Shown here one piece after another: positions 1,021-56,311 of a DNA stretch of 64,000 nt (within the stretch, counting starts at the first letter, position 1; each line of letters begins with the position of its first letter). The notes under the pieces are model-generated. The model was given only the letters and a program-made list of their open reading frames with translations. It searched no databases and was not told the DNA's origin. The stretch spans positions 2,534-66,533 of the forward strand of contig JAYUZR010000035.1 in assembly GCA_043751595.1 (NCBI GenBank), read 5' to 3'. The DNA is from Candidatus Berkelbacteria bacterium. GTDB lineage: Bacteria; Patescibacteriota; UBA1384; CAILIB01. The translations under genes were made by a program, and so were the position numbers.

Positions 1021-1581
1021 ATGAACCAGACATTCTCTCGTCTCCTAGTACTAAGTATCGCCCTGGGTGGCTTACTTATGAGTAGCCCAGCATTAGCTGC
1101 ATCAATTCCCAATCCTTGCGCAGCAGTTATTGCTAAGCCAGGCTCCACGCTAAAAACAAGCGCCCTCCCCCTGCTGCCTAAGGAATTATTTACTCCTAAT
1201 ATCATTCCTTCGCCCGCGCCAACACCTGCCCCAGGCGCACCTCCCGCCGCAGTAACGCCAGCCCCCAAGGTTACGCCCCAGTGCAACCCAACCTACTGGA
1301 CTCGCCAGGTCTACAACGTAATTGCCCTTCGTATCCTCAACCTCCTCAACTGGACCGCTGGCAGCCTAGCCGTGGTCATTACGGTATACGCTGGAACCCT
1401 CTACGTAATGGGATTCATGAACGAAGCTAACGTAAAGAAGGCAAAAAGCCTCCTTATTACCGCCTATACCGGCCTTGCCATCGTCTTTCTCTCCCGCGCT
1501 ATCCTGTATGGTACCGTTGCCGTTATTACCGGCGACGATGTTAACCCGACAAGTCCATACAACGTGGATCTAACCCTATGA
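1021..1581 (+). CDS. T4SS pilin-like protein, paralog 2 (signal peptide, Pro/Ala-rich linker, two C-terminal TM helices)
   Basis: Signal peptide LLMSSPALAAS, PAPTPAPGAPP linker, then two hydrophobic helices flanking NEANVKKAKSLLITAYTGL. It sits in tandem with the clearer paralogs and its TGA stop overlaps the next ATG (ATGA). Confidence 0.4.
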   Translation: MNQTFSRLLVLSIALGGLLMSSPALAASIPNPCAAVIAKPGSTLKTSALPLLPKELFTPNIIPSPAPTPAPGAPPAAVTPAPKVTPQCNPTYWTRQVYNVIALRILNLLNWTAGSLAVVITVYAGTLYVMGFMNEANVKKAKSLLITAYTGLAIVFLSRAILYGTVAVITGDDVNPTSPYNVDLTL

Positions 1582-1964
1582 TCGCTTCAATCGTCCTACA
1601 TCTCTTAGGGGTATCCCCCGCTTATGCGGCAGGCGTTATTACTAGTCCGAACGATCCCAACCGAGTAGTTGGCCAGTATAAATACTTTACCGATAAAACT
1701 ACCCCACAGGGGATCGATACCGTTATTGATGGTATCTACGGCAACGCCCTCACTATCGTTTTCCTATTTCTAGGAGTCGCCGCCATCGCCTATCTTATTT
1801 GGGCCGGTATCCGTTACGCCTCTAGCGGAGGCAACCCTGAAGCCGCTAAGCAAGCCCGCCAAAAGATTATCAATGTATTCCTCGGGCTCGTAGTTCTCTT
1901 TGGTGTATATACGATCCTTGCGGCAATTATCTCCCTTGGTGGATGGGTAGGAAGGTTCGTCTAG
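1578..1964 (+). CDS. T4SS pilin-like protein (VirB2/TrbC-type), paralog 3
   Basis: Signal peptide ending AYAAG. Core motif IAYLIWAGIRYASSGGNPEAAKQARQKIINVFLGLVVLF with two TM helices, the family hallmark shared by six paralogs in this window. Confidence 0.55.
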   Translation: MIASIVLHLLGVSPAYAAGVITSPNDPNRVVGQYKYFTDKTTPQGIDTVIDGIYGNALTIVFLFLGVAAIAYLIWAGIRYASSGGNPEAAKQARQKIINVFLGLVVLFGVYTILAAIISLGGWVGRFV

Positions 1965-2034
1965 CTCAACAATAGTTTGACAACACCACCGTCCCTTCTT
2001 TAGAATTAATATAACCTTATTTCTAAAGGAGGAT

Positions 2035-2430
2035 ATGTCAATTAACTTCCGTTCTGCTTACGCACGTCTTGGCGCTGTCGCCGTTGGTGCTAGCCTAGCT
2101 ACTCTTCCAATGGCTGCTCACGCTGCTGTTGGTGCGCTCACCCCTGCTGGTGGCGATATCAATACATCAAGCACCCTAGATGAGCAGATCAGCTCCATCT
2201 CTGGTAGCGTTATTGATACCGTTCTTCTTATCGCTGGCGTCCTAGCTGTTATCTACCTGCTTTACTCTGGTATTCAGTACATCACTTCAGCTGGTAACCC
2301 AGAAAAAGCTAAGGGCGCTCGTCAGGGTATCATCAACGCCGTTATCGGTATCGTTGTTATCATTGCTGCGTTCTTCATCGTTCGTCTTGCAGTTGGTAGC
2401 GGTAACCAAATCAACAGCCTTAACAACTAG
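2035..2430 (+). CDS. T4SS pilin-like protein (VirB2/TrbC-type), paralog 4
   Basis: RBS AAAGGAGG 6 nt upstream of the ATG. Signal peptide ...AAHAAVG. Core YLLYSGIQYITSAGNPEKAKGARQGIINAVIGIVVII. Followed by a terminator. Confidence 0.55.
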   Translation: MSINFRSAYARLGAVAVGASLATLPMAAHAAVGALTPAGGDINTSSTLDEQISSISGSVIDTVLLIAGVLAVIYLLYSGIQYITSAGNPEKAKGARQGIINAVIGIVVIIAAFFIVRLAVGSGNQINSLNN

Positions 2431-2452
2431 TCCCCTAGTTCTAAGCCTGCAA

Positions 2453-2480
2453 AGACCCGGCCTTGGCCGGGTCTTTTTTA
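2453..2480. terminator. Rho-independent terminator, usable in both directions
   Basis: GACCCGGCC-ttgg-CCGGGTC hairpin followed by TTTTTT on the plus strand. It ends the pilin cluster and, on the minus strand, the FtsB-like gene. Confidence 0.6.
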
Positions 2481-2504
2481 ATTAGCGATCTTTCTTTAAT
2501 TTTT

Positions 2505-2568
2505 AGTGATTATTTCTTCCGCGTATCCGAGGCGTACGCCGAGGGCTTAGCGGGAGAAATAAATCACT
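2505..2568. repeat. 64-nt structured element R1 (conserved loop, covarying stems); paired with the copy at 3839..3902
   Basis: Sequence: GTGATTA-tttcttccgc-GTATCCGaGGCGTacGCcGAGGgCTTAG-cgggagaaa-TAaATCAC. The outer stem and 27-nt loop match R2, while the 11-12 bp middle stem has a completely different but still complementary sequence. It lies between the stop of the minus-strand gene 2564..2989 and its terminator. Confidence 0.5.
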
Positions 2569-2989
2569 TACCTTGGATATATCTCCACCACTGCTCCCAG
2601 TTAGGCAGGTTGCGCCTTGGATCGCGGGCAGCCTGAGCGGCAGCTAGCGCCTGGTGGGCCGCCTGCTGCTTGCCTACGCTTGATTCTGGCAGTGCATAGA
2701 CCTTCTCTTCTGGCCGATGTAGTAACGCCACCCTCCGTAACTCCTTTTCTTTAAAGGAGTCGCTTTGGTAATACACCAGCAATGCCTTTAGGCGGTCGCG
2801 CTCACTCTCTAGGTTGGTGAGCTTAGTTTCCAAATCAGTAATCTGCTGCCTGCTGGCTACCGCCGATTTAAGTGAATTCGTGGTAACCACACCTAAATAG
2901 CACACGGCAGCAATCAGCCAGAGGGCCGTGGTTGAACGCTGTGTCCAGCGAAGAATACGTTGCAGAAGAATACGCAAGAGATGCACCAA
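2564..2989 (-). CDS. FtsB/DivIC-like septum formation initiator (single TM plus coiled coil)
   Basis: N-terminal TM (ALWLIAAVCYLGVVTT), then a heptad coiled coil QITDLETKLTNLESERDRLKALL. Size and layout are typical of FtsB/DivIC. Confidence 0.4.
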   Translation of the reverse strand: MVHLLRILLQRILRWTQRSTTALWLIAAVCYLGVVTTNSLKSAVASRQQITDLETKLTNLESERDRLKALLVYYQSDSFKEKELRRVALLHRPEEKVYALPESSVGKQQAAHQALAAAQAARDPRRNLPNWEQWWRYIQGK

Positions 2990-3004
2990 CCAAGTATAGC
3001 AAAC

Positions 3005-3532
3005 TTACTTACTACCAAATAATTGAACAGTAATAAGAGTACGCTCCCCCGATGCATCTACAGACCACACACAAGCGTATCCGACTTCTTTATATTTAGG
3101 AGAAAGAATATTGGCACGGTGACCAGGACTCTTCATCCAACCAGTGGTGATGCCTTCAGGAGTTTTGAATCCCTTAGCCAGGTTCTCCCCTGCGCTACGG
3201 TATGAATACCCTGCCTCCTCAATAAATGACCAAGGAGTCTTACCATCTAGAGGACGAAAGTGCGCCCAATAACCACGAGTAATCATATCGTGCGCCTTAG
3301 CCTGAGCGGCCTGATTTAGTTGCTCATTAATAACAAGCTCAGGAAGGCCGGTCGCTACGCGCTGTGCGTTGGTAAGGATGAGAAGCTCGGCTGGAGAATA
3401 CGCAATTTGCTCAGCAGAAAGCTCGGTTGCTGAAACGCCATTTGCAGCCAAAGCAGTATCGGCCCCAAGCGGAAGAATGGCGCGAATTACTACTACGAGG
3501 ATAAAAAGGCTTTTTGCCCAAAAAGTATTCAT
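3005..3532 (-). CDS. Secreted CAP/SCP/PR-1 domain protein (YkwD-like)
   Basis: Signal peptide, then the CAP motifs GENLA, GWMKSPGHRANIL and YKEVGYAC. Confidence 0.7.
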   Translation of the reverse strand: MNTFWAKSLFILVVVIRAILPLGADTALAANGVSATELSAEQIAYSPAELLILTNAQRVATGLPELVINEQLNQAAQAKAHDMITRGYWAHFRPLDGKTPWSFIEEAGYSYRSAGENLAKGFKTPEGITTGWMKSPGHRANILSPKYKEVGYACVWSVDASGERTLITVQLFGSK

Positions 3533-3798
3533 TTGTGTTGTTTTTGTTTCTCTTTTTGAGATGCACTAAGTATACGACAGAACAGCAGTAATTTCAATCA
3601 GTATTGAAGTCTTTAAGATTACGGACACGTCAGTTTTACGCTCCAGCGATTACTATACGATAGTGTATTACCTTTCCCGTATCAGCTGTTCGGTTTGTTT
3701 TACCACTACTTTTCCACAGGTGGATAACCTCTCAATAAGTGGGCGGTCAGCCCCGGTGGGGCCAGTGACCACATAGCCCTCTCGTAACTTGAGACACT

Positions 3799-3830
3799 AA
3801 AAAAAGCCCCTCCTTTCGGAAGGGCTTTTG
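3799..3830 (-). terminator. Rho-independent terminator of pyk
   Basis: On the minus strand the hairpin AGCCCTTCC-gaaa-GGAGGGGCT is followed by TTTTTTT. Confidence 0.6.
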
Positions 3831-3838
3831 CCTCTGTC

Positions 3839-3902
3839 GGTGATTATTGTACTGGCGTATCCGGAGCGTCAGCGACGGTCTTAGCCAGTACAATAGATCA
3901 CC
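3839..3902. repeat. 64-nt structured element R2 (second copy of the R1 family)
   Basis: Sequence: GTGATTA-ttgtactggc-GTATCCGgaGCGTcaGCgacGGtCTTAG-ccagtacaa-TAgATCAC. A perfect 11-bp middle stem (ATTGTACTGGC/GCCAGTACAAT). Same placement as R1: 4 nt after the pyk stop and before the pyk terminator. Confidence 0.5.
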
Positions 3903-3905
3903 CTC

Positions 3906-4955
3906 TTAGAAGTAGTTCGGGCGGTGATACATAGCTTCTTCAGCGCGCTTAACAATCTTTACCATGGTGGCCAGAGAGTTAATTGGGTCAATACCAGCAG
4001 CTGTTTCTTCGGAAAGCATCACTGCATCGCTACCAGCAAATACTGCGTTCGCCACATCTGAAACTTCAGCGCGGGTTGGGCGAGTATTTTTGGTGATAGA
4101 AAGCATCATCTGAGTAGCGGTGATGACTGCCTTCTTAGACCAGCGGCATCGCTCGGTAATCTCGCGCTGCAGTACTGGAATATCTTCCATAGGCATCTCG
4201 ATACCAAGATCGCCACGGGCAATCATCACGATATCGGAACCATCGATAATCTCCTGAAGGTTAGCAATCGCGCGGCGACGCTCTACCTTAGAAATAAGCT
4301 TAATATCGCGACTGCCGATCATGGCACGTACTTCATCAAGCTCTTTTCGACTATCAACAAAGGAAAGTGCAATCGCATCTACTCCTGGGGCCGTATTAAG
4401 CAAGAAATCAAGATCACGATAATCTTTTTCGGTTAGCGCAGGAGAGCTCAGGTTGGTATCGGGAACATTAATACTCTTGCGTGACATCAAGATACCACCA
4501 GAGGTGATTCGAACAGCGATACGGTGACCCTTCACCCAACTAACAATGCCCTCAATGGCACCATCCATGAAGGTAATATATTCCCCTGCTTTTACATCAT
4601 TATGCAACGTGGAGTCGTTGATCAAAATCTCATCGGAAGATTCTGGCTCACCAACGTTCATGTAGAACGTATATTCCTTATCGGTATCAAGAGGAATGCC
4701 GGCATCTGGCAAAATACCAACGCGGATATTTGGACCCTGAAGATCGGCCTGCATCTTGGTTTCAGCACCATGCTTAGTCTTAATCTCTTGCAGCATGTTG
4801 TAACGAGCGGTGTACTCATCGTACTGGCAGTGCGCAAAGTTATTGCGCAGCATATCGGAGCCGTTGAGAATCAGTCCTTCGATAATTTCGGGACTAGCAC
4901 TAGCAGGACCCACCGTAGTAACAAACTTAGTCCAGGTGCCTGAAAATTGGTTCAT
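3906..4955 (-). CDS. pyk: Pyruvate kinase (short form without the C-terminal regulatory domain)
   Basis: Motifs MIARGDLGIE, TATQMMLS, TRAEVSDVANAV and GSDAVMLSEETA. The start was taken at MNQFSGTWTKF rather than the longer ORF. About 350 aa, so it lacks the allosteric C-terminal domain. Confidence 0.85.
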   Translation of the reverse strand: MNQFSGTWTKFVTTVGPASASPEIIEGLILNGSDMLRNNFAHCQYDEYTARYNMLQEIKTKHGAETKMQADLQGPNIRVGILPDAGIPLDTDKEYTFYMNVGEPESSDEILINDSTLHNDVKAGEYITFMDGAIEGIVSWVKGHRIAVRITSGGILMSRKSINVPDTNLSSPALTEKDYRDLDFLLNTAPGVDAIALSFVDSRKELDEVRAMIGSRDIKLISKVERRRAIANLQEIIDGSDIVMIARGDLGIEMPMEDIPVLQREITERCRWSKKAVITATQMMLSITKNTRPTRAEVSDVANAVFAGSDAVMLSEETAAGIDPINSLATMVKIVKRAEEAMYHRPNYF

Positions 4956-5066
4956 GAATTGTTCTTTTCTTAAGAAATAAAGTCGACTGAACAAGCAGGT
5001 GCTAGTCAGCCGAGAACGGGTCGTACTATACTCTATTTACAGACCTTACGTAAACCTATCATTTTA

Positions 5067-5444
5067 ATGGTCCAACTCTTACTCGCCAAGCTGATTGGCC
5101 TACAAACTGCGTACGCCATCGTATCAGACCAAGCGATCAAACCAGCATCTTCCAGTGTCGGAACTGGGGGCCTTTTTGATCTAGGTAGCGATGCTACTGC
5201 CACGGTAAACAGTCTTACCTCCAGCGCCGTGGATACTATCGGCCTAGTGGCAGGTGCTTTAGCTATTATCTACATCCTTTGGTACGGCATTCAGTATATC
5301 CTCTCTGGCGGTGTACCCGATAAAACTAAGGTTGCACGGCAAGGAATCATCAACGGCGTTATCGGTATTGTTATCATTACAGCAGCCTATGCCGTAATCC
5401 GTTTCGCTGTTGCCATCGGAAATAAGGCTGCATCCGTTATCTAA
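5067..5444 (+). CDS. T4SS pilin-like protein (VirB2/TrbC-type), paralog 5
   Basis: Signal peptide ...LQTAYAIVS. Core IIYILWYGIQYILSGGVPDKTKVARQGIINGVIGIVIITAAYAVIRFAV. Confidence 0.55.
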   Translation: MVQLLLAKLIGLQTAYAIVSDQAIKPASSSVGTGGLFDLGSDATATVNSLTSSAVDTIGLVAGALAIIYILWYGIQYILSGGVPDKTKVARQGIINGVIGIVIITAAYAVIRFAVAIGNKAASVI

Positions 5445-5449
5445 CCATC

Positions 5450-5884
5450 ATGCTCGCTGCACTCCTTCCCCTTTACGCAACACTCCAGACGGCCATTATC
5501 GAGCATGCCTACGCTACTGACGGCATCATTCCCACTCCGGCTAATCAGAAGCTTAACACTTCAACTGTTGTAACCAGTAGTGGAAGTGCTTCCGACCAGG
5601 TAAACCAACTACTCTTTACCGGAAATGGCGGTACTCCCGGTATCGTTGGACAGGCCCTCACTATCGGCACCGCTGTCGCCGGCGGCATTGCTGTACTCTA
5701 CGTAATCTGGGCCGGTGTCCAGTACATTATGGCCGGTGGAAGCCCCGATAAAACCAAGGCAGCCCGAGCAAGAATCGTTGGTGCCGTTGTTGGTATTGTG
5801 CTCATTATGGCCACCTATGCCATTATCCGCTTCGCCATTGCTGCTGGTCGCCTAGTAGATACCGCCAGTACAAAGGCAAACTAA
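5450..5884 (+). CDS. T4SS pilin-like protein (VirB2/TrbC-type), paralog 6
   Basis: Signal peptide ...AYATDG. Core VLYVIWAGVQYIMAGGSPDKTKAARARIVGAVVGIVLIMATYAIIRFAI. Tandem with paralogs 5 and 7. Confidence 0.55.
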   Translation: MLAALLPLYATLQTAIIEHAYATDGIIPTPANQKLNTSTVVTSSGSASDQVNQLLFTGNGGTPGIVGQALTIGTAVAGGIAVLYVIWAGVQYIMAGGSPDKTKAARARIVGAVVGIVLIMATYAIIRFAIAAGRLVDTASTKAN

Positions 5885-5899
5885 TAACCCAGGACCGCC

Positions 5900-6646
5900 G
5901 TGATCACGGTTAATCAAGTACCAGCGGGCACCTTTAACCTGGTAGACAGACTCAATGCCGCTGGGTCAAATATTGATATCATTCTGTACGCTGTCTTAGG
6001 TGGCGTAGCAGTTATCTTTGTTACCCTCGCAGGAGTTCGCTACATTACCTCAGGTGGAAGTGCCGATAAAGCAAAAGTTGCCCGGCAAGGAATTATTAAT
6101 GCCGTGATCGGTGTCGTGATTGGCATGTCTGCCTTTGCCATTATTCGACTTGCTCGCCTCTCCACCACTGTTGGAGCAGACGTTGCCACTGGTAAGTTTG
6201 TGGTTACCACCCCTGCCCCCAAGCCCACTAAAGCGCCAAGCGGATCGAACCCCCGTTCAGACGCTACGCCAAGTTATTCTGGTGTTGGAACCTACTACCA
6301 AGAGGCTCAACGAGTACTCGCGCTATACTCCCTAGTACCTGCCTATACCGACAGCGCCGGCAAGCATCCGGCTAAGATGTGCTACCTAGGAGACCCAACC
6401 CGCTGCTTAGCAGCAAACGCAGATGATGCCGGAGTAACCAATGGCGCAGCCTTTAACGACCTTGACGAGTGTATCCACTTTGCGGAAACAAGGAATGATA
6501 TCTACTCCTGCGTTGATACCGCCGCTAACGGAGGAAATACTAACCACGAAGAATGGATCTGCCGAGCATGGGAAGTCGACGCCTTTAATCATTTTCTCGC
6601 GACTAACGGTGACATGGATTACCCCGCCTGCCCCTTCAAGGATTAA
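5900..6646 (+). CDS. T4SS pilin-like protein, paralog 7, with a 120-aa cysteine-rich C-terminal extension
   Basis: Pilin core VRYITSGGSADKAKVARQGIINAVIGVVIGMSAFAIIRLAR, then a Pro/Thr linker and a domain with six Cys (CYLGDPTRC...ECIHF...SCVDT...ICRAW...ACPF). Confidence 0.5.
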   Translation: MITVNQVPAGTFNLVDRLNAAGSNIDIILYAVLGGVAVIFVTLAGVRYITSGGSADKAKVARQGIINAVIGVVIGMSAFAIIRLARLSTTVGADVATGKFVVTTPAPKPTKAPSGSNPRSDATPSYSGVGTYYQEAQRVLALYSLVPAYTDSAGKHPAKMCYLGDPTRCLAANADDAGVTNGAAFNDLDECIHFAETRNDIYSCVDTAANGGNTNHEEWICRAWEVDAFNHFLATNGDMDYPACPFKD

Positions 6647-23929: not shown

Positions 23930-24703
23930 ATGACGACAAACCTCGACAAATCTTCTTTAGCTGCCTTATCGCTATTTGAACTCCGCCCAACGGAAGAAAA
24001 GGTTTACCTAACGTGCCTTATACATGGCTCACTTAGTGCGCAAGCTATCGCTAAAATAAGCGGACTCAAGCGAACAACTGTTTATGGCTTGTGTGACTAC
24101 TTGCAACAAAAAGGGCTCCTTAAATTCTACCAACAGCGCAGTCACCGACTATTCTACGCAGAGCATCCTTCTGTTCTTGTTAAGAAAGCCCAAGAAAATG
24201 CAAGGGAAGCAGCTACCAAGGCTGCGGACTTGGAGCGCAACTTACCTGTTCTTAGTATGCTGTATCAGCGGGGAGATCATCAGCCATATGTCCAAGTCTT
24301 CACAGGACAAGAGCAGATTCGCCAAGCTGTTGAAGGAGTACTAGAGCAAAGCCCCGACGAGGTACTTTTTGTTGCAACACCCTCTATACTTGAAGATGTT
24401 TTGGGGAAAAGCCATCTCGAACGGTATTTAGACAGAAGGGTAAAGCTGAAGATTGCAACACGCGGCATTTATACAAGGGATCAATTACCAAATGAGACCT
24501 ATCTAGGAACAACTCAAAACCTTAGGGAAGTTAGAATTGCGCTGCCTGACTTTACAGCACCGACCTATACGGGAATTTATAATAATACGGTATTGCTTAT
24601 ATCTAATCAGGTAGAGGCTACCGCTGTGCGCATTACCTCTAAAGCCTATGCCGACACAGTGAGGAGTTGGTTTGAAGTCTTATGGAAGAGTCTTGAGCAA
24701 TAG
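23930..24703 (+). CDS. TrmB-like HTH transcriptional regulator
   Basis: N-terminal winged HTH (EEKVYLTCLIHGSLSAQAIAKISGLKRTTVYGLCDYLQQKGLL) plus a C-terminal TrmB-type domain. Confidence 0.5.
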   Translation: MTTNLDKSSLAALSLFELRPTEEKVYLTCLIHGSLSAQAIAKISGLKRTTVYGLCDYLQQKGLLKFYQQRSHRLFYAEHPSVLVKKAQENAREAATKAADLERNLPVLSMLYQRGDHQPYVQVFTGQEQIRQAVEGVLEQSPDEVLFVATPSILEDVLGKSHLERYLDRRVKLKIATRGIYTRDQLPNETYLGTTQNLREVRIALPDFTAPTYTGIYNNTVLLISNQVEATAVRITSKAYADTVRSWFEVLWKSLEQ

Positions 24704-24781
24704 AACAACTTCGCACTGCGGCGCGCTCAACTTATATTGAGCAGAACGAACCAATGGTTTCGAGCTCAGGCGGGCATAAAC

Positions 24782-24820
24782 AAAAAAGAAGAGAAGAGCA
24801 GCAGCTCTTCTCTTCTTTTT
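24782..24820. terminator. Rho-independent terminator, usable in both directions (12-bp perfect stem)
   Basis: AAAAAA-GAAGAGAAGAGC-agca-GCTCTTCTCTTC-TTTTT. It ends the TrmB-like gene on the plus strand and tRNA-Asn on the minus strand. Confidence 0.65.
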
Positions 24821-24894
24821 GGCTCCCCCGGCTGGGCTCGAACCAGCGACATCCTCGTTAACAGCGAGGCGCTCTACCACTGAGCTACAGGGGA
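24820..24894 (-). tRNA. tRNA-Asn (GTT), CCA encoded
   Basis: Cloverleaf read by eye: acceptor UCCCCUG/CGGGGGA with U1-A72 as in E. coli tRNA-Asn, anticodon loop CUGUUAA, T-loop TTCGAGC. Confidence 0.85.
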
Positions 24895-24930
24895 CTAAAC
24901 GAGTGGAAAGCGAGAGCTTGCTCTCAGCTT

Positions 24931-25091
24931 TATCGCGAGCGACGTCCCCTGTATTGCGAAGCAATACACCAGGAGCCTCTACGCGTACTCTAGTTTCTCC
25001 GAACGGAGTGAACCCTGTATCGCGAAGCGATACAGGAGACACAAGACTATCGCGAGTGACGTCCCCTGTCTTGCGAAGCAAGACTAGGAGT
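24931..25091. repeat. Array of three covarying stem-loops, each built around the GCGAAGC mini-hairpin heptamer
   Basis: Units: CCTGTATTGC-GAA-GCAATACA, CCTGTATCGC-GAA-GCGATACAGG (10-bp perfect stem), CCTGTCTTGC-GAA-GCAAGAC. Units 1 and 3 are preceded by TATCGCGAG(C/T)GACGTCC. Located between the PEP-utilizing gene stop and the tRNA-Asn 5' end. Confidence 0.5.
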
Positions 25092-25154
25092 CACAACACC
25101 TCCTAACAAACACCCTCGAACCTTAGCAAAGCTTCGCCAACAGATCAAGACCTA

Positions 25155-27293
25155 CTAATTCTGAAGGAAATGCTCCAGAACCACTCTTCGCTCAATTGAA
25201 GCTAGAAGCTCAGCTGTTTGCACCTGATTACTCTGGGAGCAAACCACACCCATCGCGCCAGCAGAAATTGCAGCCTGTACCAAGGCAGGATCAGGGTCAA
25301 CTCCTTCAAATAAAATATAGGCCGGGACACCATATGCATCCGCCAAACTAATGGCCTCAGAAACTTGTCCAGCCAAAAGTACCGGATAATGGACATACTT
25401 AGTCATCCCTCCGTGCTCTCTATCTATACCAAGCATCAGCTCTGCCAAGGCAGGAAGATCCAGGTACACGCCATCAATCCCGTGCTCAAGCATTGTCTCC
25501 AGCTCATGCAGGGCCGCTGGCGTTTCAATCCGTACCCAAATCGGAAGTTCCGCGTAGGCGCGTAGTCGTGTATGCAAAGCAATCGCTTCTTTAGCATGGC
25601 GGATCATTGGCAGAACGGCTGCCACCCGGCCATCTCCCAACTGTTTTACCATCTCCTTTAGGATAGCAACCTCGGCCTCAAGCAACTCCGGTTCATGTAA
25701 TAACCGATGCGCTCCCCTATTACCCATCGTCGGATTAATCTCGTGGCGCATCGCGCCGCGGGTGTGCAACAGCTTGTGACTATGCAAATCGTGCAACTGA
25801 TACTGCACCTGAGGCACCCCAGCCGCTAGCTCTACCATTTGATTAGCAACTAGCTGCTGATATTCCTCGGCCCGCTTTCCGGCCAATAACCGCTCAGGGT
25901 GATCACGCAAAACAGCCGCAACAGATTCTGGGCGAAGCAAGATTTGAGAAGGTGCTACAGCAGCAGGCGCATACAACAGTGCATCATCAACCAAGACCGC
26001 CACATTGGAGATGGGATGAGAGGCTGCCGTACCCGTTGAGCCGGTTTGCAAAAGCTGAGGATGCACTCCGTGAAGCACCTGTCCTTGCAGAGCATCCAAG
26101 GTAACCATCTCAGACTGCTTAAAATCAGCTAGACCGGTCACACCACCTAAAAGTGGTATATGATGGCGCTTTGCGCTTACACGCACCTGCTGCGAAGCGT
26201 GAGCAGAAACAATGCCGGCACACATCGGTAGCTTACCCATGCGAGTAGATAGGTGCTGAACAAAGACAATATGCTCGGGACGAACCTTGCGCCAATCATG
26301 CGGACGATGCACATGAAAGACTGGGCCTATTGCAAATCCCATGTGCAGTACCTCGCCTGGAGTACCCTGAAGCATGGCCGGCACCAAAGCATGCTCATAA
26401 GCATCTACACCAACCAGCTGCATGCCGGTATCAGTCCAGATCCATCTTGCAACTACCTCATCACTAAATTGCTGCTGAATTGCACGGCCGGCGCGCGCAA
26501 GCATTACTGCTTGCTCATCGGTGATAGTAGAGAAGCTACTGGTGAGTTTTTTAGGAGAATGATGTACACCCGATTGATCAGCTGCCACCCAATGACGCTC
26601 AAGTTTACGATCTAGCAAAATCAGGCGCTTAGCGTCGAACCGATAGGTATCATCTTGGGCAAACCCCTGCATACCAGGGCGGGCGGTAACCGTAAGTACG
26701 GTGGCATCATGAGTACGGGTATCCATCTGGATAACCTCGCCACTCATGGCAGCCTTGGGGTAGTACTGCACCAAGATTGGGGCAGGGTGCGGTGCAATCT
26801 GATTATCTTTAACTAGTCTTGCGTATACCCGAGTATCTGTAAGCTGCAGACTAAGTAAATCGAGGATAAAGGGGAGAAGCGGCTGATCTTTTCCTAGCAC
26901 AATACTAAGCTCATCCCCTGCACAGGAAAGCTTAAGTGGAAGATCGGTAACCAACATTTGCTCTCGCAGATCGGTGACCATGGCCTCTAGCGCAGTAATG
27001 GTCCTATTAGCAGGTTTAGCCTCGCGCAAGCGCATCCGCAGCTCAGCCGCAAGCAATGGAATCTGCTCAGGTGAGCGGTGATGCAGGTGTGTGCCTACAT
27101 CCTTAAGCGCACGCTTAACGCCAGCATCTTCCCAGATACTAGCCGCAACCAGAGTGGATAAAGCAAAACCAGGCAAAAGCGGAACACCACTACGATGCGC
27201 CCTCGCCAAGCGTGCTACCGCGGCGCCAAAAAGTGGGGCATCAGTTTCTTCATCAATCAGAGAGACCCACTTGGCGGTACGGCTGAAATCCAT
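25155..27293 (-). CDS. PEP-utilizing enzyme family protein (pyruvate,water dikinase/PPDK-like) with degenerate catalytic motifs
   Basis: C-terminal PEP-utilizers motif INPTMGNRGAHR. Central mobile-domain-like SAHAS...GGVTG. N-terminal LFGAAVARLA in place of the GGK ATP-grasp motif. Start placed at MDFSRTAKW because the longer ORF overlaps recX. Confidence 0.45.
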   Translation of the reverse strand: MDFSRTAKWVSLIDEETDAPLFGAAVARLARAHRSGVPLLPGFALSTLVAASIWEDAGVKRALKDVGTHLHHRSPEQIPLLAAELRMRLREAKPANRTITALEAMVTDLREQMLVTDLPLKLSCAGDELSIVLGKDQPLLPFILDLLSLQLTDTRVYARLVKDNQIAPHPAPILVQYYPKAAMSGEVIQMDTRTHDATVLTVTARPGMQGFAQDDTYRFDAKRLILLDRKLERHWVAADQSGVHHSPKKLTSSFSTITDEQAVMLARAGRAIQQQFSDEVVARWIWTDTGMQLVGVDAYEHALVPAMLQGTPGEVLHMGFAIGPVFHVHRPHDWRKVRPEHIVFVQHLSTRMGKLPMCAGIVSAHASQQVRVSAKRHHIPLLGGVTGLADFKQSEMVTLDALQGQVLHGVHPQLLQTGSTGTAASHPISNVAVLVDDALLYAPAAVAPSQILLRPESVAAVLRDHPERLLAGKRAEEYQQLVANQMVELAAGVPQVQYQLHDLHSHKLLHTRGAMRHEINPTMGNRGAHRLLHEPELLEAEVAILKEMVKQLGDGRVAAVLPMIRHAKEAIALHTRLRAYAELPIWVRIETPAALHELETMLEHGIDGVYLDLPALAELMLGIDREHGGMTKYVHYPVLLAGQVSEAISLADAYGVPAYILFEGVDPDPALVQAAISAGAMGVVCSQSNQVQTAELLASIERRVVLEHFLQN

Positions 27294-34260: not shown

Positions 34261-34292
34261 AAAAAAAGAAGCCCTAACCGGGCTTCTTTTTA
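34261..34292. terminator. Rho-independent terminator, usable in both directions
   Basis: An A7 run, GAAGCCC-taacc-GGGCTTC, then T5. Confidence 0.6.
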
Positions 34293-34314
34293 TAAAAGAT
34301 CTAATCAGACCTCA

Positions 34315-34512
34315 TTAGGCCATGATACCAGCTACACCAAGGGTAGAAAGGTGACCAGCAGTTACCGCAAGCATTAGCGCAAGACTCAAGGTTACAGACT
34401 CGAAAGCGGTAAGGTTTTCGAAATCGATATGCTTGGTACTAATGAGCGTAATAGGACGCTTCATTACGTGTACTTGTGCAGCAGCCTCGGTAGTTGAAGA
34501 AGTATTCTTCAT
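34315..34512 (-). CDS. Small hypothetical protein (65 aa) with a hydrophobic C-terminal half
   Basis: AAAGGGA RBS 7 nt upstream of the ATG. Confidence 0.35.
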   Translation of the reverse strand: MKNTSSTTEAAAQVHVMKRPITLISTKHIDFENLTAFESVTLSLALMLAVTAGHLSTLGVAGIMA

Positions 34513-34597
34513 ATAAATCCCTTTCAGTTCTAAGCGATATTATTTTTATATTTGTTTTGCTTGAACGAGACAATTATACGTGCCCGCTCTATTTATT

Positions 34598-34834
34598 TCA
34601 AGTACCAAGAAGCTTATCGGCCAGCTTAAGATTCATGAGGAAGCTAGTTTGTGCCTCTAGGAAGTAGATTCCTACGAGAATTATCCCAAGAATAGCTAAG
34701 ATGAGAAGAACCCCTGCCACTTCTTTTGAGACCGAGGTAGGGTGGAGAACGATCTCTACCTTCTTAGCACTGCGTACAGTGGAAGGGATGTGAGAACCAG
34801 AAAGTGCAGAAAGTTTTCGGGAGGGCGCTTGCAT
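34598..34834 (-). CDS. Small hypothetical membrane protein (78 aa, single TM)
   Basis: ORF with the TM helix GVLLILAILGIILVGIYFL. Tandem with the 65-aa ORF. Confidence 0.3.
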   Translation of the reverse strand: MQAPSRKLSALSGSHIPSTVRSAKKVEIVLHPTSVSKEVAGVLLILAILGIILVGIYFLEAQTSFLMNLKLADKLLGT

Positions 34835-35445: not shown

Positions 35446-35446
35446 T

Positions 35447-35524
35447 TTTCTTTGCGGAGAAAGCAGTCGAAAAGGAAACAACATTCCTTAAGCAACTTTG
35501 TTGCTGCTCCAATGCTTTCTCCGC
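35447..35524 (+). repeat. Long imperfect inverted repeat in the tRNA-Leu/tRNA-Phe spacer (TTCTTTGCGGAGAAAGCA ... TGCTTTCTCCGCAAAGAA) with an internal GCAAC-tttg-TTGC hairpin
   Basis: About 18-bp arms separated by 41 nt, read directly from the sequence. A candidate processing structure or small RNA. Confidence 0.3.
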
Positions 35525-35556
35525 AAAGAAAATAGGCTAAATGCAAGGAAAACAAG

Positions 35557-44685: not shown

Positions 44686-44704
44686 GCGAGTAGTCGCTTG
44701 TACT

Positions 44705-44732
44705 AAAAAAGAACGGGAAACCGTTCTTTTTT
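44705..44732. terminator. Rho-independent terminator, usable in both directions
   Basis: An A6 run, GAACGG-gaaa-CCGTTC, then T6. Confidence 0.6.
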
Positions 44733-44734
44733 AG

Positions 44735-44811
44735 TGGTCGGCTTGATGGGACTTGAACCCATGACCGGCGCCTTATAAGAGCGCTGCTCTAACCAGCTGA
44801 GCTACAAGCCG
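44735..44811 (-). tRNA. tRNA-Ile with a UAU (TAT) anticodon, CCA encoded
   Basis: Reverse complement is CGGCTTG-TA-GCTC-AGCTGGTTA-GAGC-A-GCGCT-CTTATAA-GGCGC-CGGTC-ATGGG-TTCAAGT-CCCAT-CAAGCCG-A-CCA. U33 and A37 flank the TAT anticodon. Confidence 0.75.
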
Positions 44812-44936
44812 AGAGAAGGAGGGAATAAACAAGTTTACTTGTTTATTCGTGACTGAACGAGGCGTGTATCCGGCAAGGCCGGATACCAGGAGACACAAGA
44901 CACCCAAAAACCTGTCTCACTATGCCAGAATCTCTC

Positions 44937-48481: not shown

Positions 48482-49435
48482 ATGCAGCTTCCATTACGCC
48501 TGCTCACCCCTGGTGAGCAGGTTGTGTTAATTTCCCACATCAACCCCGATGGCGACGCAGTAGGTTCTTTGCTCGCCCTTGCTTTGGTCCTTAAAAACCT
48601 AGGGTGGAAGGAAGTTATCCCGGTACTGAGTGATGGCGTGCCAAGTAGCTTTAACTACCTCCCGCTTAGTAAGGCGGTTATCCGAGAAGTCCCGCTCCAC
48701 GCTGATTACTGCATACTTCTTGATGCCAACGAAACAAGTCGATCTGGCCAGCATGATGCTCTGCAGCAGTACCTGGCTACCGACCGTCTTATCGTGATTG
48801 ATCATCACCCGCCTACGCAGCTTATCAATCGAGCAGTTGATCACCTTCACCAGGTAGATATTTCCTCAACCTGCGAAATACTGTACACCGCCTTTCGCGC
48901 ATCTAAGATTAAGATTACTGCAGAGATTGCCACCTGCCTCCTCACTGGCATCTTTACTGATACTGGTGGATACCATCACAGCAACACTCGCAATGAGACC
49001 CTTGAAGCCTGTGGCTTTTTGATGCGCTGTGGGGGGCGACTTGATCAAGTAGTAAGTAACTTAGTACAAGGTAAAACCTTAAGTAGTTTACGCCTCCTCG
49101 GGATTGCCCTTGAGCGAGTCACTATTACCTCCAAGGGGCGCTGTGCAGTAACCGCGCTTACTCAAGCAGACATCGAGGGTACCCAGGCTACAGCTGCTGA
49201 TATTAGCGGTATCGTGGGCCATCTCGCCATGCTGCCAGGGGTTAAGTGCGCACTCCTCATTAGTGAGTTTACACCGGGGATTGTACGCGGCTCCCTACGT
49301 ACCACAGAAGGCTCTACAGCCGACGTTGAGCGTCTAGCTAAGTTACTAGGAGGTGGAGGCCATAAGAAGGCGGCTGGATTCTCTGTGTATGGCCATATTG
49401 AAGTAAGGGGGCAAACCTGGAAGGTGGTTGCCTAA
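48482..49435 (+). CDS. DHH/DHHA1 phosphoesterase (second NrnA-like paralog)
   Basis: ISHINPDGDAVGS, VIDHHPPTQ and GGGGHKKAAGF. Confidence 0.6.
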   Translation: MQLPLRLLTPGEQVVLISHINPDGDAVGSLLALALVLKNLGWKEVIPVLSDGVPSSFNYLPLSKAVIREVPLHADYCILLDANETSRSGQHDALQQYLATDRLIVIDHHPPTQLINRAVDHLHQVDISSTCEILYTAFRASKIKITAEIATCLLTGIFTDTGGYHHSNTRNETLEACGFLMRCGGRLDQVVSNLVQGKTLSSLRLLGIALERVTITSKGRCAVTALTQADIEGTQATAADISGIVGHLAMLPGVKCALLISEFTPGIVRGSLRTTEGSTADVERLAKLLGGGGHKKAAGFSVYGHIEVRGQTWKVVA

Positions 49436-49478
49436 CCTAAGGCAAATCGCTAGTATTCCAGTCGGTATCGGTTTATGT

Positions 49479-49564
49479 GCCACGGTGGTGGAACGGTTAT
49501 ACACGGCGGACTTAAAATCCGCTGAGCCTAGCTCTTGCGGGTTCGAATCCCGCCCGTGGTACCA
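49479..49564 (+). tRNA. tRNA-Leu (TAA), class II, CCA encoded
   Basis: GCCACGG...anticodon loop CTTAAAA, variable arm GAGCctaGCTC, T-loop TTCGAAT, CCGTGGT-A-CCA with a G1-U72 wobble. Confidence 0.8.
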
Positions 49565-49592
49565 GCCAAGTCCTTTGGGACTTGGCTTTTTT
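49565..49592 (+). terminator. Rho-independent terminator after tRNA-Leu
   Basis: GCCAAGTCC-tttg-GGACTTGGC followed by TTTTTT. Confidence 0.65.
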
Positions 49593-49605
49593 AGTATCAA
49601 CGTAT

Positions 49606-49634
49606 TTGTTGGAAGACTTCACCCGCGGTATACT
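49606..49634 (+). promoter_or_regulatory. Candidate sigma70-like promoter of the T4SS-like operon (TTGTTG, 17 nt, TATACT)
   Basis: Read from the sequence between the terminator and the first operon gene. No SD sequence ahead of the first ATG. Confidence 0.3.
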
Positions 49635-49670
49635 ATTCGTGTGCAATTCCAGGTCCCCCAGAACATCACG

Positions 49671-50102
49671 ATGGAAGATAAAATCATCGGGCCACTCAGC
49701 CCGATCCAGTTTGGTATCGTCACCATTGGGGGCTTAGCCGCTTTTGTTATCTTTAGTTCAGATGGCCTGCCCAGTCCCATTAACAAAATAATCGGATTTT
49801 TTCTGGCCATGATCACCCTAGCCCTAGCAATGGGTAAGTTTAACGATCAACCACTCTACTCGTTCACTAAGTACATTATCCTTTTTGTTACCTCACCCAA
49901 GACCAGGGTTTGGAAAAAGAATGGGGGAATGGAGCCCGTTCTTGTTAAGCCTACACAGCGCTCTGGAGCAGCTGATCAAGCCAAGGTGATCAAGCACGTA
50001 CGCAAAAACGATATTGCCCAACTTGCCACTATTCTTGATAGCCGCGGTACGGTAGGGAAGAGCCCCACCATCGCAACCAGTAGAGGGACGACAAAATCAT
50101 GA
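49671..50102 (+). CDS. VirB3-like small membrane protein (PrgI/ConD-like) of a Gram-positive-type T4SS
   Basis: Two TM helices (PIQFGIVTIGGLAAFVIF; IIGFFLAMITLALAM). Lies immediately upstream of, and overlaps (ATGA), the VirB4 N-domain gene. The longer ORF start overlaps tRNA-Leu and was rejected. Confidence 0.4.
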   Translation: MEDKIIGPLSPIQFGIVTIGGLAAFVIFSSDGLPSPINKIIGFFLAMITLALAMGKFNDQPLYSFTKYIILFVTSPKTRVWKKNGGMEPVLVKPTQRSGAADQAKVIKHVRKNDIAQLATILDSRGTVGKSPTIATSRGTTKS

Positions 50103-50887
50103 GCGCAGCTGGAGCCTCCACCCAAGACCACCTACCTGTCGCAGGTATCCAGGATGGGGTAGTAATCATGAACGACACTTCAGTACGCGCCATCTTACGG
50201 GTGCAACCGATTAACTTTGAACTAAAGTCAGAGGCCGAGCAAAACGCCATCATCTACAGCTACCAATCCTTCCTCAACTCACTCGATTTCCCGGTTGAGA
50301 TTGTTATTAATTCTAAGAAGCTCGATCTTGAGCGCTACCTACGCAAACTGGAAGAGCAAAAGAAAAATCTTTCAAGCGATCTTCTTAGAATCCAGATCGA
50401 AGATTACGTAAACTTTGTCAGGCGCCTTATCACGATTGCCAACATTATGGCTAAGCGCTTCTACGTAGTAGTAAGTTACGCTGCAGTTACAGGCGCCAAG
50501 GCATCGAGTGGATTCTCTCTTAGTACGGTACTAGGTATTGGTGGCGGAAATACTCAGGCAACTCTCTATCAAGACCAGTTTGATCGCTACAAGGCAGAGC
50601 TAGGCAATAGGGCTAACATTGTTTCTGCCGGGCTTACTCGCGTAGGTTTAAGGGTTGAACCCCTTACCACTCAAGAGATTATCGAGCTCCTCTATGGTGC
50701 TTATAACCCCGACATTGCCCAAGAAGAGCGGCTTACTGATGTGTCTGCCCTTAGTGCTGGTATCGTATCATCCGAGAACGTTGCACCACCCTTGGAACAA
50801 GCTGCAGAAGTTCCTCCAGTAGCCGTGCCAGAGGCTGCCCCTGCTCAACCAACCGCCAATCCACCACAACAGCCACCAGCTGTATAG
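50099..50887 (+). CDS. VirB4/TraC-like N-terminal domain, ending at an in-frame TAG 6 nt before the ATPase ORF
   Basis: VAGIQDGVVIMNDTSVRAILRVQPINFELKSEAEQNAIIYSYQSFLNSL matches the CagE/TrbE/VirB4 N-domain. It ends in a Pro-rich linker, and the next ORF is in the same frame. Confidence 0.55.
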   Translation: MSAAGASTQDHLPVAGIQDGVVIMNDTSVRAILRVQPINFELKSEAEQNAIIYSYQSFLNSLDFPVEIVINSKKLDLERYLRKLEEQKKNLSSDLLRIQIEDYVNFVRRLITIANIMAKRFYVVVSYAAVTGAKASSGFSLSTVLGIGGGNTQATLYQDQFDRYKAELGNRANIVSAGLTRVGLRVEPLTTQEIIELLYGAYNPDIAQEERLTDVSALSAGIVSSENVAPPLEQAAEVPPVAVPEAAPAQPTANPPQQPPAV

Positions 50888-50893
50888 CCGACT

Positions 50894-52693: not shown

Positions 52694-52712
52694 CGTAGTC
52701 GCCTAGTCAACT

Positions 52713-54662: not shown

Positions 54663-54964
54663 TGCCCTCTCCAACCCCTTGTCCTAACCCAGGAGTCCTT
54701 ACCAACTGCTCTCAGAGCACGCTACAGGGGTATGCTCAGGCTATTATCAACGATAATATCGGATACATTTTTACGATTGCTTTAATCATGATCATCTACT
54801 CAGGGGTTGAGTATATGTACTCCGGTTTCTCTCCTGATAAACAAAAATCTGCCAAGCAGCGCATCATTGGTATTATTACCGGACTTGTATTCTTCCTCTT
54901 GCTTCAGGTAATCCTCAATCAGATTACCGATATTAAGGGCCTTCCCACCGTTAGAAGTCATTAA
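54662..54964 (+). CDS. T4SS pilin-like protein (VirB2/TrbC-type), paralog 8, inside the T4SS-like operon
   Basis: Core IIYSGVEYMYSGFSPDKQKSAKQRIIGIITGLVFFLLL. Its ATG overlaps the upstream stop. Confidence 0.5.
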   Translation: MPSPTPCPNPGVLTNCSQSTLQGYAQAIINDNIGYIFTIALIMIIYSGVEYMYSGFSPDKQKSAKQRIIGIITGLVFFLLLQVILNQITDIKGLPTVRSH

Positions 54965-54966
54965 TT

Positions 54967-56304: not shown

Positions 56305-56311
56305 TAAATCC

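Follow-up and report, generated by a model that had tools for sequence, protein, structure and literature searches.

A tandem array of loosely REP-like stem-loop repeats between a PEP-utilising-enzyme gene and tRNA-Asn in a Candidatus Berkelbacteria bacterium

Introduction

The closest known system to the sequences described here is that of the repetitive extragenic palindromic (REP) repeats and bacterial interspersed mosaic elements (BIME), especially the CGTC-tagged super-family (Di Nocera et al. 2013, PMC3733652). REP-type repeats lie mostly downstream of open reading frames (ORFs), often contain G-T pairs and plausibly act as RNA; their stems measure 6-13 bp and their loops 2-5 nt, with loops of 4-5 nt in the CGTC families (PMC3733652). 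A tag, GTAG or CGTC, stands unpaired at the stem end, the variants TGTC and CCTC being allowed. REP copies are numerous and scattered across the genome, and REP dimers are mostly inverted (head-head or tail-tail) and rarely head-tail. GTAG REPs are accompanied by a RAYT (Y1) transposase, and CGTC REPs were reported without a dedicated transposase (PMC3733652). Here we describe three stem-loop units in tandem between a phosphoenolpyruvate (PEP)-utilising-enzyme gene and tRNA-Asn, and a fourth copy before tRNA-Ile, in a 64,000-nt stretch of DNA from a Candidatus Berkelbacteria bacterium (contig JAYUZR010000035.1; this whole stretch is called the window). The array units are named U1, U2 and U3, following units 1-3 of a preliminary description made from the sequence, and the copy before tRNA-Ile is named U_Ile. 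Copies were read from the 64-kb window and from 8.4 kb more of the same genome (~72 kb). With moderate confidence, we read them as a lineage-specific, REP-like stem-loop repeat family that is carried on the sense strand of tRNA precursors and is present in three head-to-tail copies at this locus.

The units resemble REP repeats in being short intergenic stem-loops, and their stems of 7-10 bp and loops of 3 nt fall within the REP ranges. Complementary stem variants, G-T pairs, a position after an ORF on the transcribed strand and species-specific occurrence are also shared. CGTC and CCA, which recall CGTC REPs, are present in U1 and U3, and CGTG and CCA in U_Ile. On the + strand, the tag region reads GA-CGTC-CC-stem in U1 and U3, CGTG-stem in U_Ile and GTGAAC-stem in U2, so that CGTC occurs in two of the four units, 2 nt off the apical stem. 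Unlike REPs, the units are longer (53-61 nt), possess a conserved non-palindromic 5′ motif, are arranged head-to-tail instead of as inverted dimers, and in all known copies flank tRNA genes. No Y1_Tnp/RAYT match was found among 35 ORFs of the window. The units would work like a REP-type element and can be filed only loosely in that broad kind.

Three other systems were compared. Structured spacers and leaders of tRNA and rRNA operons, and the REP-type 3′ stabilisers of upstream mRNA that Newbury et al. (1987) reportedly described, are likewise stable hairpins without U-tracts between a coding region and an RNA gene. For both, a block of 3′ exonucleases after endonucleolytic processing is expected, and long hairpins are carried in other tRNA spacers of the relatives and of the window. 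Unlike such processing stems, which are conserved, the units form a family of related sequences that share a 5′ motif, and they appear to be a recent insertion. The tyrT-distal repeats of E. coli are tandem repeats beside a tRNA gene that carry part of the tRNA. Here, tandem copies also directly flank a tRNA gene and U1 shows a 10-nt complementarity to tRNA-Asn, but the units lie upstream of the tRNA, not downstream, and show no significant similarity to the nine tRNAs of the window. The third system is the d(GCGAAGC) mini-hairpin DNA, which is said to have been characterised by Hirao et al. This mini-hairpin is a property of single-stranded DNA (ssDNA) and has been described at ssDNA origins and in the hairpin promoters of N4 (PMC13037366). 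On the + strand, three of the stems are topped by exactly this heptamer. Unlike the mini-hairpin, however, the transcribed reading is GCUUCGC, the heptamer is found in three of the four copies, and no sign of an ssDNA origin or phage context was seen. The initial emphasis on the mini-hairpin was therefore misplaced, given that it is an ssDNA property, that the heptamer lies on the template strand and that U_Ile does not contain it.

Results

Repeat units

Three perfect hairpins with a GCGAAGC apex on the + strand had been reported, and they are present at 24950-24968 (TGTATTGC-GAA-GCAATACA), 25014-25036 (CCTGTATCGC-GAA-GCGATACAGG) and 25068-25084 (GTCTTGC-GAA-GCAAGAC). Because the PEP gene, tRNA-Asn and its terminator are all encoded on the - strand, any transcript carries GCUUCGC, with a UUC triloop, and the GCGAAGC heptamer is on the template strand. 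When the - strand is read, GUNUUGUGNCUCCU precedes each hairpin. Judged from the sequence, the true unit is a stem-loop repeat of 53-61 nt and not the heptamer hairpin alone. It consists of this conserved single-stranded 5′ motif, an apical hairpin of 7-10 bp closed by GC-NNN-GC, and a looser, semi-conserved 3′ tail that is able to pair back onto the 5′ motif. The apical stems measure 7, 8, 9 and 10 bp, every loop is 3 nt long, and CUCCU is invariant (4/4 units). The limits drawn in the preliminary description were too small, and the most conserved part of the unit, the 5′ motif, had been overlooked. The four units are as follows.

25047-25099, - strand: U3, GUGUUGUGACUCCU-A-GUCUUGC-UUC-GCAAGAC-AGGGGACGUCACUCGCGAUAG, apical hairpin 25068-25084
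24993-25047, - strand: U2, GUCUUGUGUCUCCU-GUAUCGC-UUC-GCGAUAC-AGGGUUCACUCCGUUCGGAGAAAC, apical hairpin 25014-25036
24928-24984, - strand: U1, GCGUAGAGGCUCCU-GG-UGUAUUGC-UUC-GCAAUACA-GGGGACGUCGCUCGCGAUAAAG, apical hairpin 24950-24968
44841-44901, - strand: U_Ile, GUCUUGUGUCUCCU-G-GUAUCCGGC-CUU-GCCGGAUAC-ACGCCUCGUUCAGUCACGAAUAAAC, apical hairpin 44866-44886

U3, U2 and U1 abut head-to-tail in one orientation, and U2 has a further, small hairpin, CUCC-GUUC-GGAG (24997-25008). A covariance model derived from all four units (R1) scored 69.9 bits for U1, 64.4 for U2, 58.8 for U3 and 52.2 for U_Ile. Across the window, the next match after these four (52-70 bits) reached 13.9 bits and was the palindromic reverse reading of U2; no further copies were found by R1 in the 64 kb. 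The composite motif CCTGTNNNGCGAAGCNNNACAGG, with at most 3 mismatches, gave 4 matches at the three sites (one site on both strands) versus 0.17 expected. GCGAAGC by itself was found 13 times in the window versus 10.3 expected, indicating no enrichment. The 17-nt direct repeat TATCGCGAG(C/T)GACGTCC, reported to precede units 1 and 3, is present at 24931-24947 and 25048-25064 and is part of a repeat reaching 37 nt at 92% identity; on the sense strand, however, it does not precede these units but forms their 3′ tail. Tandem Repeats Finder gave no output, the copies being too diverged.

The spacer sequence is base-for-base identical across five contigs from five samples, indicating that the array is not an assembly artefact. 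No strain or copy-number variation was observed, all available contigs of the species being identical at both loci.

Folding and stem changes

The hairpins are real and, as had been claimed, their stems vary between copies by compensatory changes. In the 7-pair core common to the four copies, every pair is Watson-Crick. A change from U-A to C-G at one core position distinguishes U1 and U3 from U2 and U_Ile, a change from A-U to C-G at another position is found in U3, and U_Ile carries a 2-bp insertion that is matched on both arms. In the predicted folds, CUCCU is unpaired in U_Ile and is paired with AGGGG in an outer helix of U1-U3, via a U.G wobble whose + strand equivalent is a C.A mismatch. 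Since these wobble pairs exist only on the - strand, the - strand RNA of U1 and U3 is more stable, by 5-8 kcal/mol (U1, -25.3 kcal/mol on the - strand vs -17.5 on the + strand; U3, -24.9 vs -19.8). U2 folds with -22.6 kcal/mol (z = -4.2), and the whole 260-nt spacer folds with z = -3.2.

The 3′ arm of U1 with its flank (UACAGGGGAC, 24944-24953) is perfectly complementary over 10 nt to positions -1 to +9 of tRNA-Asn (GUCCCCUGUA, 24886-24895). U3 matches at 9/10 of these positions, and the U_Ile counterpart (UACACGCC) fits the complement of the tRNA-Ile 5′ end at 7/8. Such complementarity could be chance, a trace of origin, or leader-acceptor pairing.

Fourth copy and a possible fifth

The exact 15-mer GTCTTGTGTCTCCTG before U2 recurs once more in the window, at 44887-44901, making the 5′ motif 15/15 identical between U2 and U_Ile. 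It precedes a perfect hairpin, GTATCCGGC-CTT-GCCGGATAC (44866-44886), in a unit that starts 35 nt past the stop of a ChlI-domain gene (375/385 aa) and ends 29 nt before tRNA-Ile(TAT). A local alignment of U2 and U_Ile over ~65 nt scored 51, compared with 24.5 +/- 4.2 for shuffles (maximum 39), and the U_Ile sequence is identical in two other assemblies. The apex of U_Ile is GC-CUU-GC and its stem is two pairs longer, indicating that GCGAAGC, first taken as the defining feature, does not define the family. CTCCT followed, after at most 4 nt, by a perfect hairpin with 6 bp or more was matched exactly 4 times in the 64 kb, always on the - strand, versus 0.52 expected. All four copies are located on the - strand in gene-to-tRNA spacers. 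The ~72 kb hold 4 sure copies at 2 loci, plus 1 doubtful copy.

The doubtful copy is a long imperfect hairpin in the same genome, ~4.4 kb before the window start (L060:4010-4082, - strand). It reads GCUCGCUCGUG-CUCCUGG-CGUAAGC-UUCCGC-GAA-GCGGAA-UGCAG-GCCAGG and folds with -40.6 kcal/mol (z = -3.0). It is found ~60 nt downstream of tRNA-Arg(GCG), just beyond the terminator hairpin of that tRNA, on the tRNA strand. In common with the units, it has a GUG+CUCCUGG motif and a GC-NNN-GC apex; its loop is GAA on the tRNA strand and R1 gives it only 10 bits. This hairpin may be a diverged fifth family member.

Genomic setting and candidate promoter

As described at first, the array lies between the PEP-utilising-enzyme gene and tRNA-Asn, 36-37 nt from the tRNA 5′ end and 63 nt past the stop. 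The features around both loci are as follows.

25155-27293, - strand: PEP-utilising-enzyme-like gene, 712 aa as called in public assemblies (longest ORF to 27437, 760 codons)
25120-25148, - strand: candidate sigma-70-type promoter of tRNA-Asn, TTGATC (25148-25143), 17-nt spacer, TAAGGT (25125-25120), by pattern match
24907-24931, - strand: proximal leader hairpin AAAGC-U-GAGAG-CAAG-CUCUC-GCUUU, from the spacer fold and the sequence
24820-24894, - strand: tRNA-Asn (GTT), by ARAGORN, with 69.3 bits in the Rfam tRNA model
24783-24820, - strand: strong bidirectional intrinsic terminator with a 17-bp stem and A- and T-tracts, by terminator scan and inverted repeat
44823-44848, - strand: proximal leader hairpin GAAUAAACAAG-UAAA-CUUGUUUAUUC, by hairpin scan and sequence
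44735-44811, - strand: tRNA-Ile (TAT), by ARAGORN and Rfam
44702-44735: intrinsic terminator-like hairpin after tRNA-Ile, by hairpin scan

The PEP-utilising-enzyme ORF ends at 25155 and matches Pfam PEP-utilizers_C (E=3e-12). Its protein is 100% identical to P0001, and the gene is the last of a recA-recX-PEP block. The terminator scan placed no terminator before tRNA-Asn and a strong one directly after it, another entry nearby being 24712-24725. The terminator at 24783-24820 would end the tRNA-Asn transcript and also faces the convergent TrmB-like gene. Of the two leader hairpins, the one at 24907-24931 overlaps the U1 tail and leaves 12 nt before tRNA-Asn, and the one at 44823-44848 overlaps the U_Ile tail and leaves 11 nt before tRNA-Ile. 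Intrinsic termination by the units themselves was rejected, in line with the preliminary description, because the scan lists no unit and no T-tract follows any of the three hairpins (3/3); the units continue with AGGGG... or ACGCC... and have no U-tract.

The candidate promoter TTGATC-N17-TAAGGT begins 6 nt after the stop codon of the PEP gene. In four relatives (L033, L059, L034 and L057), TTGAAG/A-N17-TA(A/C)(T/G)(C/G)T stands before tRNA-Asn, and in L033 and L059 this promoter begins at the PEP stop codon. Given that the promoter directly follows the stop and that the layout is that of the four relatives, the array most likely lies inside a putative tRNA-Asn leader of ~219 nt, between promoter and tRNA. 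With 8.65 matches expected by chance in the window, we estimate the chance of such a promoter match in 260 nt at ~0.02. The hexamer TAAGGT recurs as the -10 candidate of tRNA-Leu(GAG) (TCGACA-N17-TAAGGT), and for tRNA-Leu(TAA) a 43-nt spacer contains TTGCCT-N17-TAGTAT. The units would also be carried by read-through from the PEP gene, and the U_Ile copy may be co-transcribed with the upstream ChlI-domain gene.

A sigma-70 promoter within each unit was considered and rejected, because the distance between TTGTGN and any -10-like hexamer varies between 17 and 22 nt and the hexamers do not match TAnnnT, apart from TTGTTA-N17-TAGTCT at 25109, where U3 begins and is overlapped. On the + strand, the array itself yielded no promoter; the sole + strand match (24710-24738) precedes the terminator at 24783-24820.

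Relatives and database searches

Six relatives with RecA 80-83% identical were compared (98.6 kb in all). The recA-recX-PEP order is kept in 6/6, and tRNA-Asn is found within 2.5 kb downstream of the PEP gene in three of the six loci. It follows the PEP gene directly in L033 and L059, 46 and 53 nt from the stop, respectively, versus 260 nt here, a difference that makes the spacer length insertion-like, and neither of the two spacers contains a unit. R1, run with filters off over the 98.6 kb, gave no match. Thus the motif is absent from the same junction in the relatives; it is not unique to this spot, as the second locus at 44841-44901 shows. Its absence from the relatives' junction argues against an old conserved function. 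Because the relatives express the same tRNA from a spacer of 46-53 nt without units, the comparison shows units that are apparently dispensable and lineage-specific, the relatives being too distant to date the insertion.

Aligned over its full length, the PEP-like protein shares 28% identity with the syntenic orthologue of L033, compared with ~81% for RecA. In the PEP-synthase/pyruvate phosphate dikinase (PPDK)-like protein of the window, Pfam sees the C-terminal domain only; the orthologues of the relatives show PPDK_N, PEP-utilizers and PEP-utilizers_C. A word-based protein search with it found essentially no homologues. The gene is fast-evolving. For the protein upstream of tRNA-Ile, no detectable relatives were found.

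In a search of Rfam 15, only tRNAs passed the gathering threshold, and with E up to 10 nothing was found within 24895-25154. The pattern CCTGTNNNGCGAAGCNNNACN{0,3}AGGAG was searched in 185,579 species genomes, among which the source genome is not included, and had 24 single matches in unrelated phyla versus a chance estimate of ~17; the stem triplets are complementary in only one of these, and three copies were seen in none. In viral contigs, this pattern had 2 chance matches. The shared core GTCTTGTGTCTCCTN{0,1}GTAT had 22 matches in JGI metagenomes, none with a family-type hairpin or a tRNA nearby. One similar-looking metagenome match (L047) was rejected as AT-rich and probably coding sequence. 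The spacer had no blastn match in phages and plasmids.

Neighbouring features

A 133-aa ORF called in some public assemblies (e.g. L002 4301-4702), at 24680-25081 on the - strand of the window, covers most of the array and the whole of tRNA-Asn, and is almost certainly spurious. On the 3′ side of tRNA-Asn, the window carries a TrmB-like regulator and a MazE/PemK pair. In two relatives, serine recombinase genes were found 3′ of tRNA-Asn, at L059:9880-11520, where the gene overlaps the tRNA 3′ end, and at L032:16016-17314, ~1.7 kb away. In this group, tRNA-Asn looks like an integration hotspot.

The TAT anticodon of tRNA-Ile (44735-44811, - strand) is unusual in bacteria, and this tRNA is convergent with the PNPase gene. 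Other tRNA spacers also hold hairpins. In L033 (3506-3545, - strand), the hairpin GUGAGGAC...GUUC-C-GCUUCGC-A-GAAC...GUCCCCUCAC ends 3 nt before tRNA-Val; its apex, GCUUCGC, is that of the units, and it is otherwise unlike them. The tRNA-tRNA spacers of a Gly-Cys-secG-Leu-Phe-Val cluster (window 35446-35555; L033:3698-3858 and 4281-4417) contain long inverted repeats with arms of 16-20 bp, differing in sequence between the genomes and occupying the same spacers. The pattern points to structured processing stems as a general feature of tRNA transcripts in the lineage.

Elsewhere in the window, a 65-aa ORF (34315-34512), within 34263-34601 on the - strand, has a near-consensus promoter, TTGAAA-N17-TATAAT (34601-34573), and a bidirectional terminator (34263-34291). 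On the + strand, 1021-6646 encodes six or seven type IV secretion system (T4SS)-pilin-like paralogues, and 49428-64000 a PrgI/VirB4-type (TraG P-loop) type IV secretion cluster with a C39-like peptidase-domain protein and, at its end, an ORF of more than 2,200 codons running off the window. The T4SS pilin paralogues, together with MurT, fit a genome like those of the candidate phyla radiation (CPR).

Discussion

Reading of the array

A lineage-specific, REP-like family on the sense strand of tRNA precursors is the reading that we favour. Units lie between the candidate tRNA-Asn promoter and tRNA-Asn, and one more between the ChlI-domain gene and tRNA-Ile. Because these are gene-to-tRNA spacers and the units are on the sense strand, they would be transcribed within the tRNA precursor or a read-through mRNA. 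As RNA they would form very stable hairpins, and RNase P would remove them together with the leader. The most likely effect would be of the REP type, with 3′-to-5′ exonucleases blocked and the upstream RNA or the excised leader stabilised; in addition, the units may insulate tRNA folding from the upstream RNA. They probably arose via insertion, local duplication and ectopic copying, and would be dispensable. Among the roles proposed in the preliminary description, that of an RNA element in the tRNA leader is the best supported. The sequences show the anatomy of the units, their strand, their kinship, their absence from the relatives and the insertion-like length of the spacer; we infer that the proposed promoter is used, that the RNA folds in vivo and that the units have a stabilising or processing effect or any other function. 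We found no evidence for a conserved function of the array.

Several points weigh against this reading. The tRNA-Asn promoter is a consensus match with a weak -10 (3/6) that the simple promoter scan does not list, and no promoter candidate was found for the tRNA-Ile copy. U2 and U_Ile fold equally well on either strand. The covariation among the four related copies is not significant, 113/500 shuffles reaching the observed score in a count made on the alignment fitted by the model, in which the longer stem of U_Ile is misplaced. Palindromes can moreover keep their complementarity by DNA-level template switching without RNA selection. The absence from relatives shows that the units are unneeded for tRNA expression, and the copy count comes from ~72 kb of genome.

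Alternative explanations

Template switching leads to the alternative that survives best, which we regard as a possible but lesser explanation: a selfish or neutral DNA palindrome (REP-like or similar to a miniature inverted-repeat transposable element, MITE) with no RNA role, spread by a transposase or by recombination, preferring tRNA-flanking DNA and keeping its stems through hairpin-templated repair. Such an element would be lineage-specific and absent from the same junction in relatives, as found, and would leave diverged tandem copies, a copy at a second locus and, in this genome, the possible diverged copy by tRNA-Arg. The + strand reading is CGTC-CC-stem-loop-stem-CCA in U1 and U3 and CGTG-stem-loop-stem-CCA in U_Ile, which recalls CGTC-tagged REPs with CCA tails. 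However, terminal inverted repeats and target duplications are absent, and the scan of 35 window ORFs found no RAYT/Y1 transposase. All copies are head-to-tail and sense-oriented, in contrast to REP dimers, most of which are inverted. Conservation is stronger in the single-stranded 5′ motif (15/15 between U2 and U_Ile) than in the stems, suggesting a sequence-specific constraint, and the wobble pair is strand-specific.

The invariant CUCCU could instead be the functional part, if the excised leader were a stable regulatory RNA of ~220 nt whose three CUCCU anti-Shine-Dalgarno-like motifs act in trans on AGGAG RNAs, as a translational regulator or sponge. The nearest analogue is reportedly 3′ETS-leuZ, an external-spacer sponge from an E. 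coli tRNA transcript. The strong structure makes it likely that such an RNA survives processing, and the motif is unpaired in the predicted fold of U_Ile. In U1-U3, on the other hand, it is paired with AGGGG, the window yielded no target or partner sequence, and none of the relatives examined has the element. We consider this unlikely; if it were true, reduced CPR genomes would have, in this repeat family, a means of making regulatory RNAs out of tRNA precursors. A weaker variant of this idea would be a mobile hairpin element whose specific target is DNA flanking tRNAs. A CsrB/RsmZ-type sponge read from the + strand was rejected, because AGGAG comes after each hairpin, outside the loops, no + strand promoter lies in the array, no + strand terminator follows it and Rfam gave no match.

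Still less probable is a palindromic operator array for a DNA-binding protein such as the convergent TrmB-family regulator (23930-24703). Archaeal TrmB relatives bind TATCAC-N5-GTGATA, which the half-sites GTATCGC / GCGATAC superficially resemble, and a TrmB-like gene adjoins tRNA-Asn both here and in L034. The changes in the two arms are symmetrical, however, as a hairpin predicts and unlike independent half-sites, and the two extra bp per arm in U_Ile place the half-sites 4 bp further apart; on these two grounds the TrmB operator was discarded. Moreover, the sites lie downstream of the PEP gene and before tRNAs and at no sugar-metabolism promoter, and the best-conserved part, the 5′ motif, is non-palindromic.

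The lagging-strand template is the strand exposed as ssDNA during replication. The + strand GC skew is negative throughout the window, so that by the usual rule this template would be the - strand, carrying GCTTCGC, and the + strand, which carries GCGAAGC, templates transcription and, judged by GC skew, the leading strand. A d(GCGAAGC) mini-hairpin extruded from the + strand as DNA, acting as a priming signal, a hairpin promoter like those of the phage N4 virion RNA polymerase, or a replication/recombination hotspot, is the least credible explanation: three exact GCGAAGC do cap stems of 7-10 bp on the strand that templates tRNA transcription, and GAA or GGA loops do occur at ssDNA origins and N4 promoters (PMC13037366), but the fourth copy has GCAAGGC on the + strand, without the G...A sheared pair, the heptamer shows no enrichment in the window, the searches revealed no similarity to phages or plasmids, and the wobble pairs favour the other strand.

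Two further identities were rejected. A tRNA-derived repeat is not supported, ARAGORN and the Rfam tRNA model detecting only the true tRNA and Smith-Waterman scores against the nine tRNAs being 8-17, with a null maximum of 16 +/- 2. GTG- or TTG-initiated frames for small peptides are present in U3 and U_Ile, but the copies differ in frame and would encode unrelated peptides, indicating that the units are not coding.

Significance

If the favoured reading of a REP-like family in tRNA precursors is true, the units are an undescribed stem-loop repeat family in the genome of an uncultivated Patescibacteria/CPR-like bacterium, an ordinary kind of repeat in a slightly unusual place. Since it would be a lineage-specific and dispensable insertion, it is of modest importance in general. 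In Patescibacteria/CPR, intergenic repeats and RNA processing have received hardly any study, and a literature search on REP elements in these organisms returned nothing relevant. The locus would mean that ~170 nt of structured repeats can be accommodated in a tRNA leader, between the promoter and the tRNA itself, and such a long structured leader would be a natural test of RNase P processing and exonuclease barriers.

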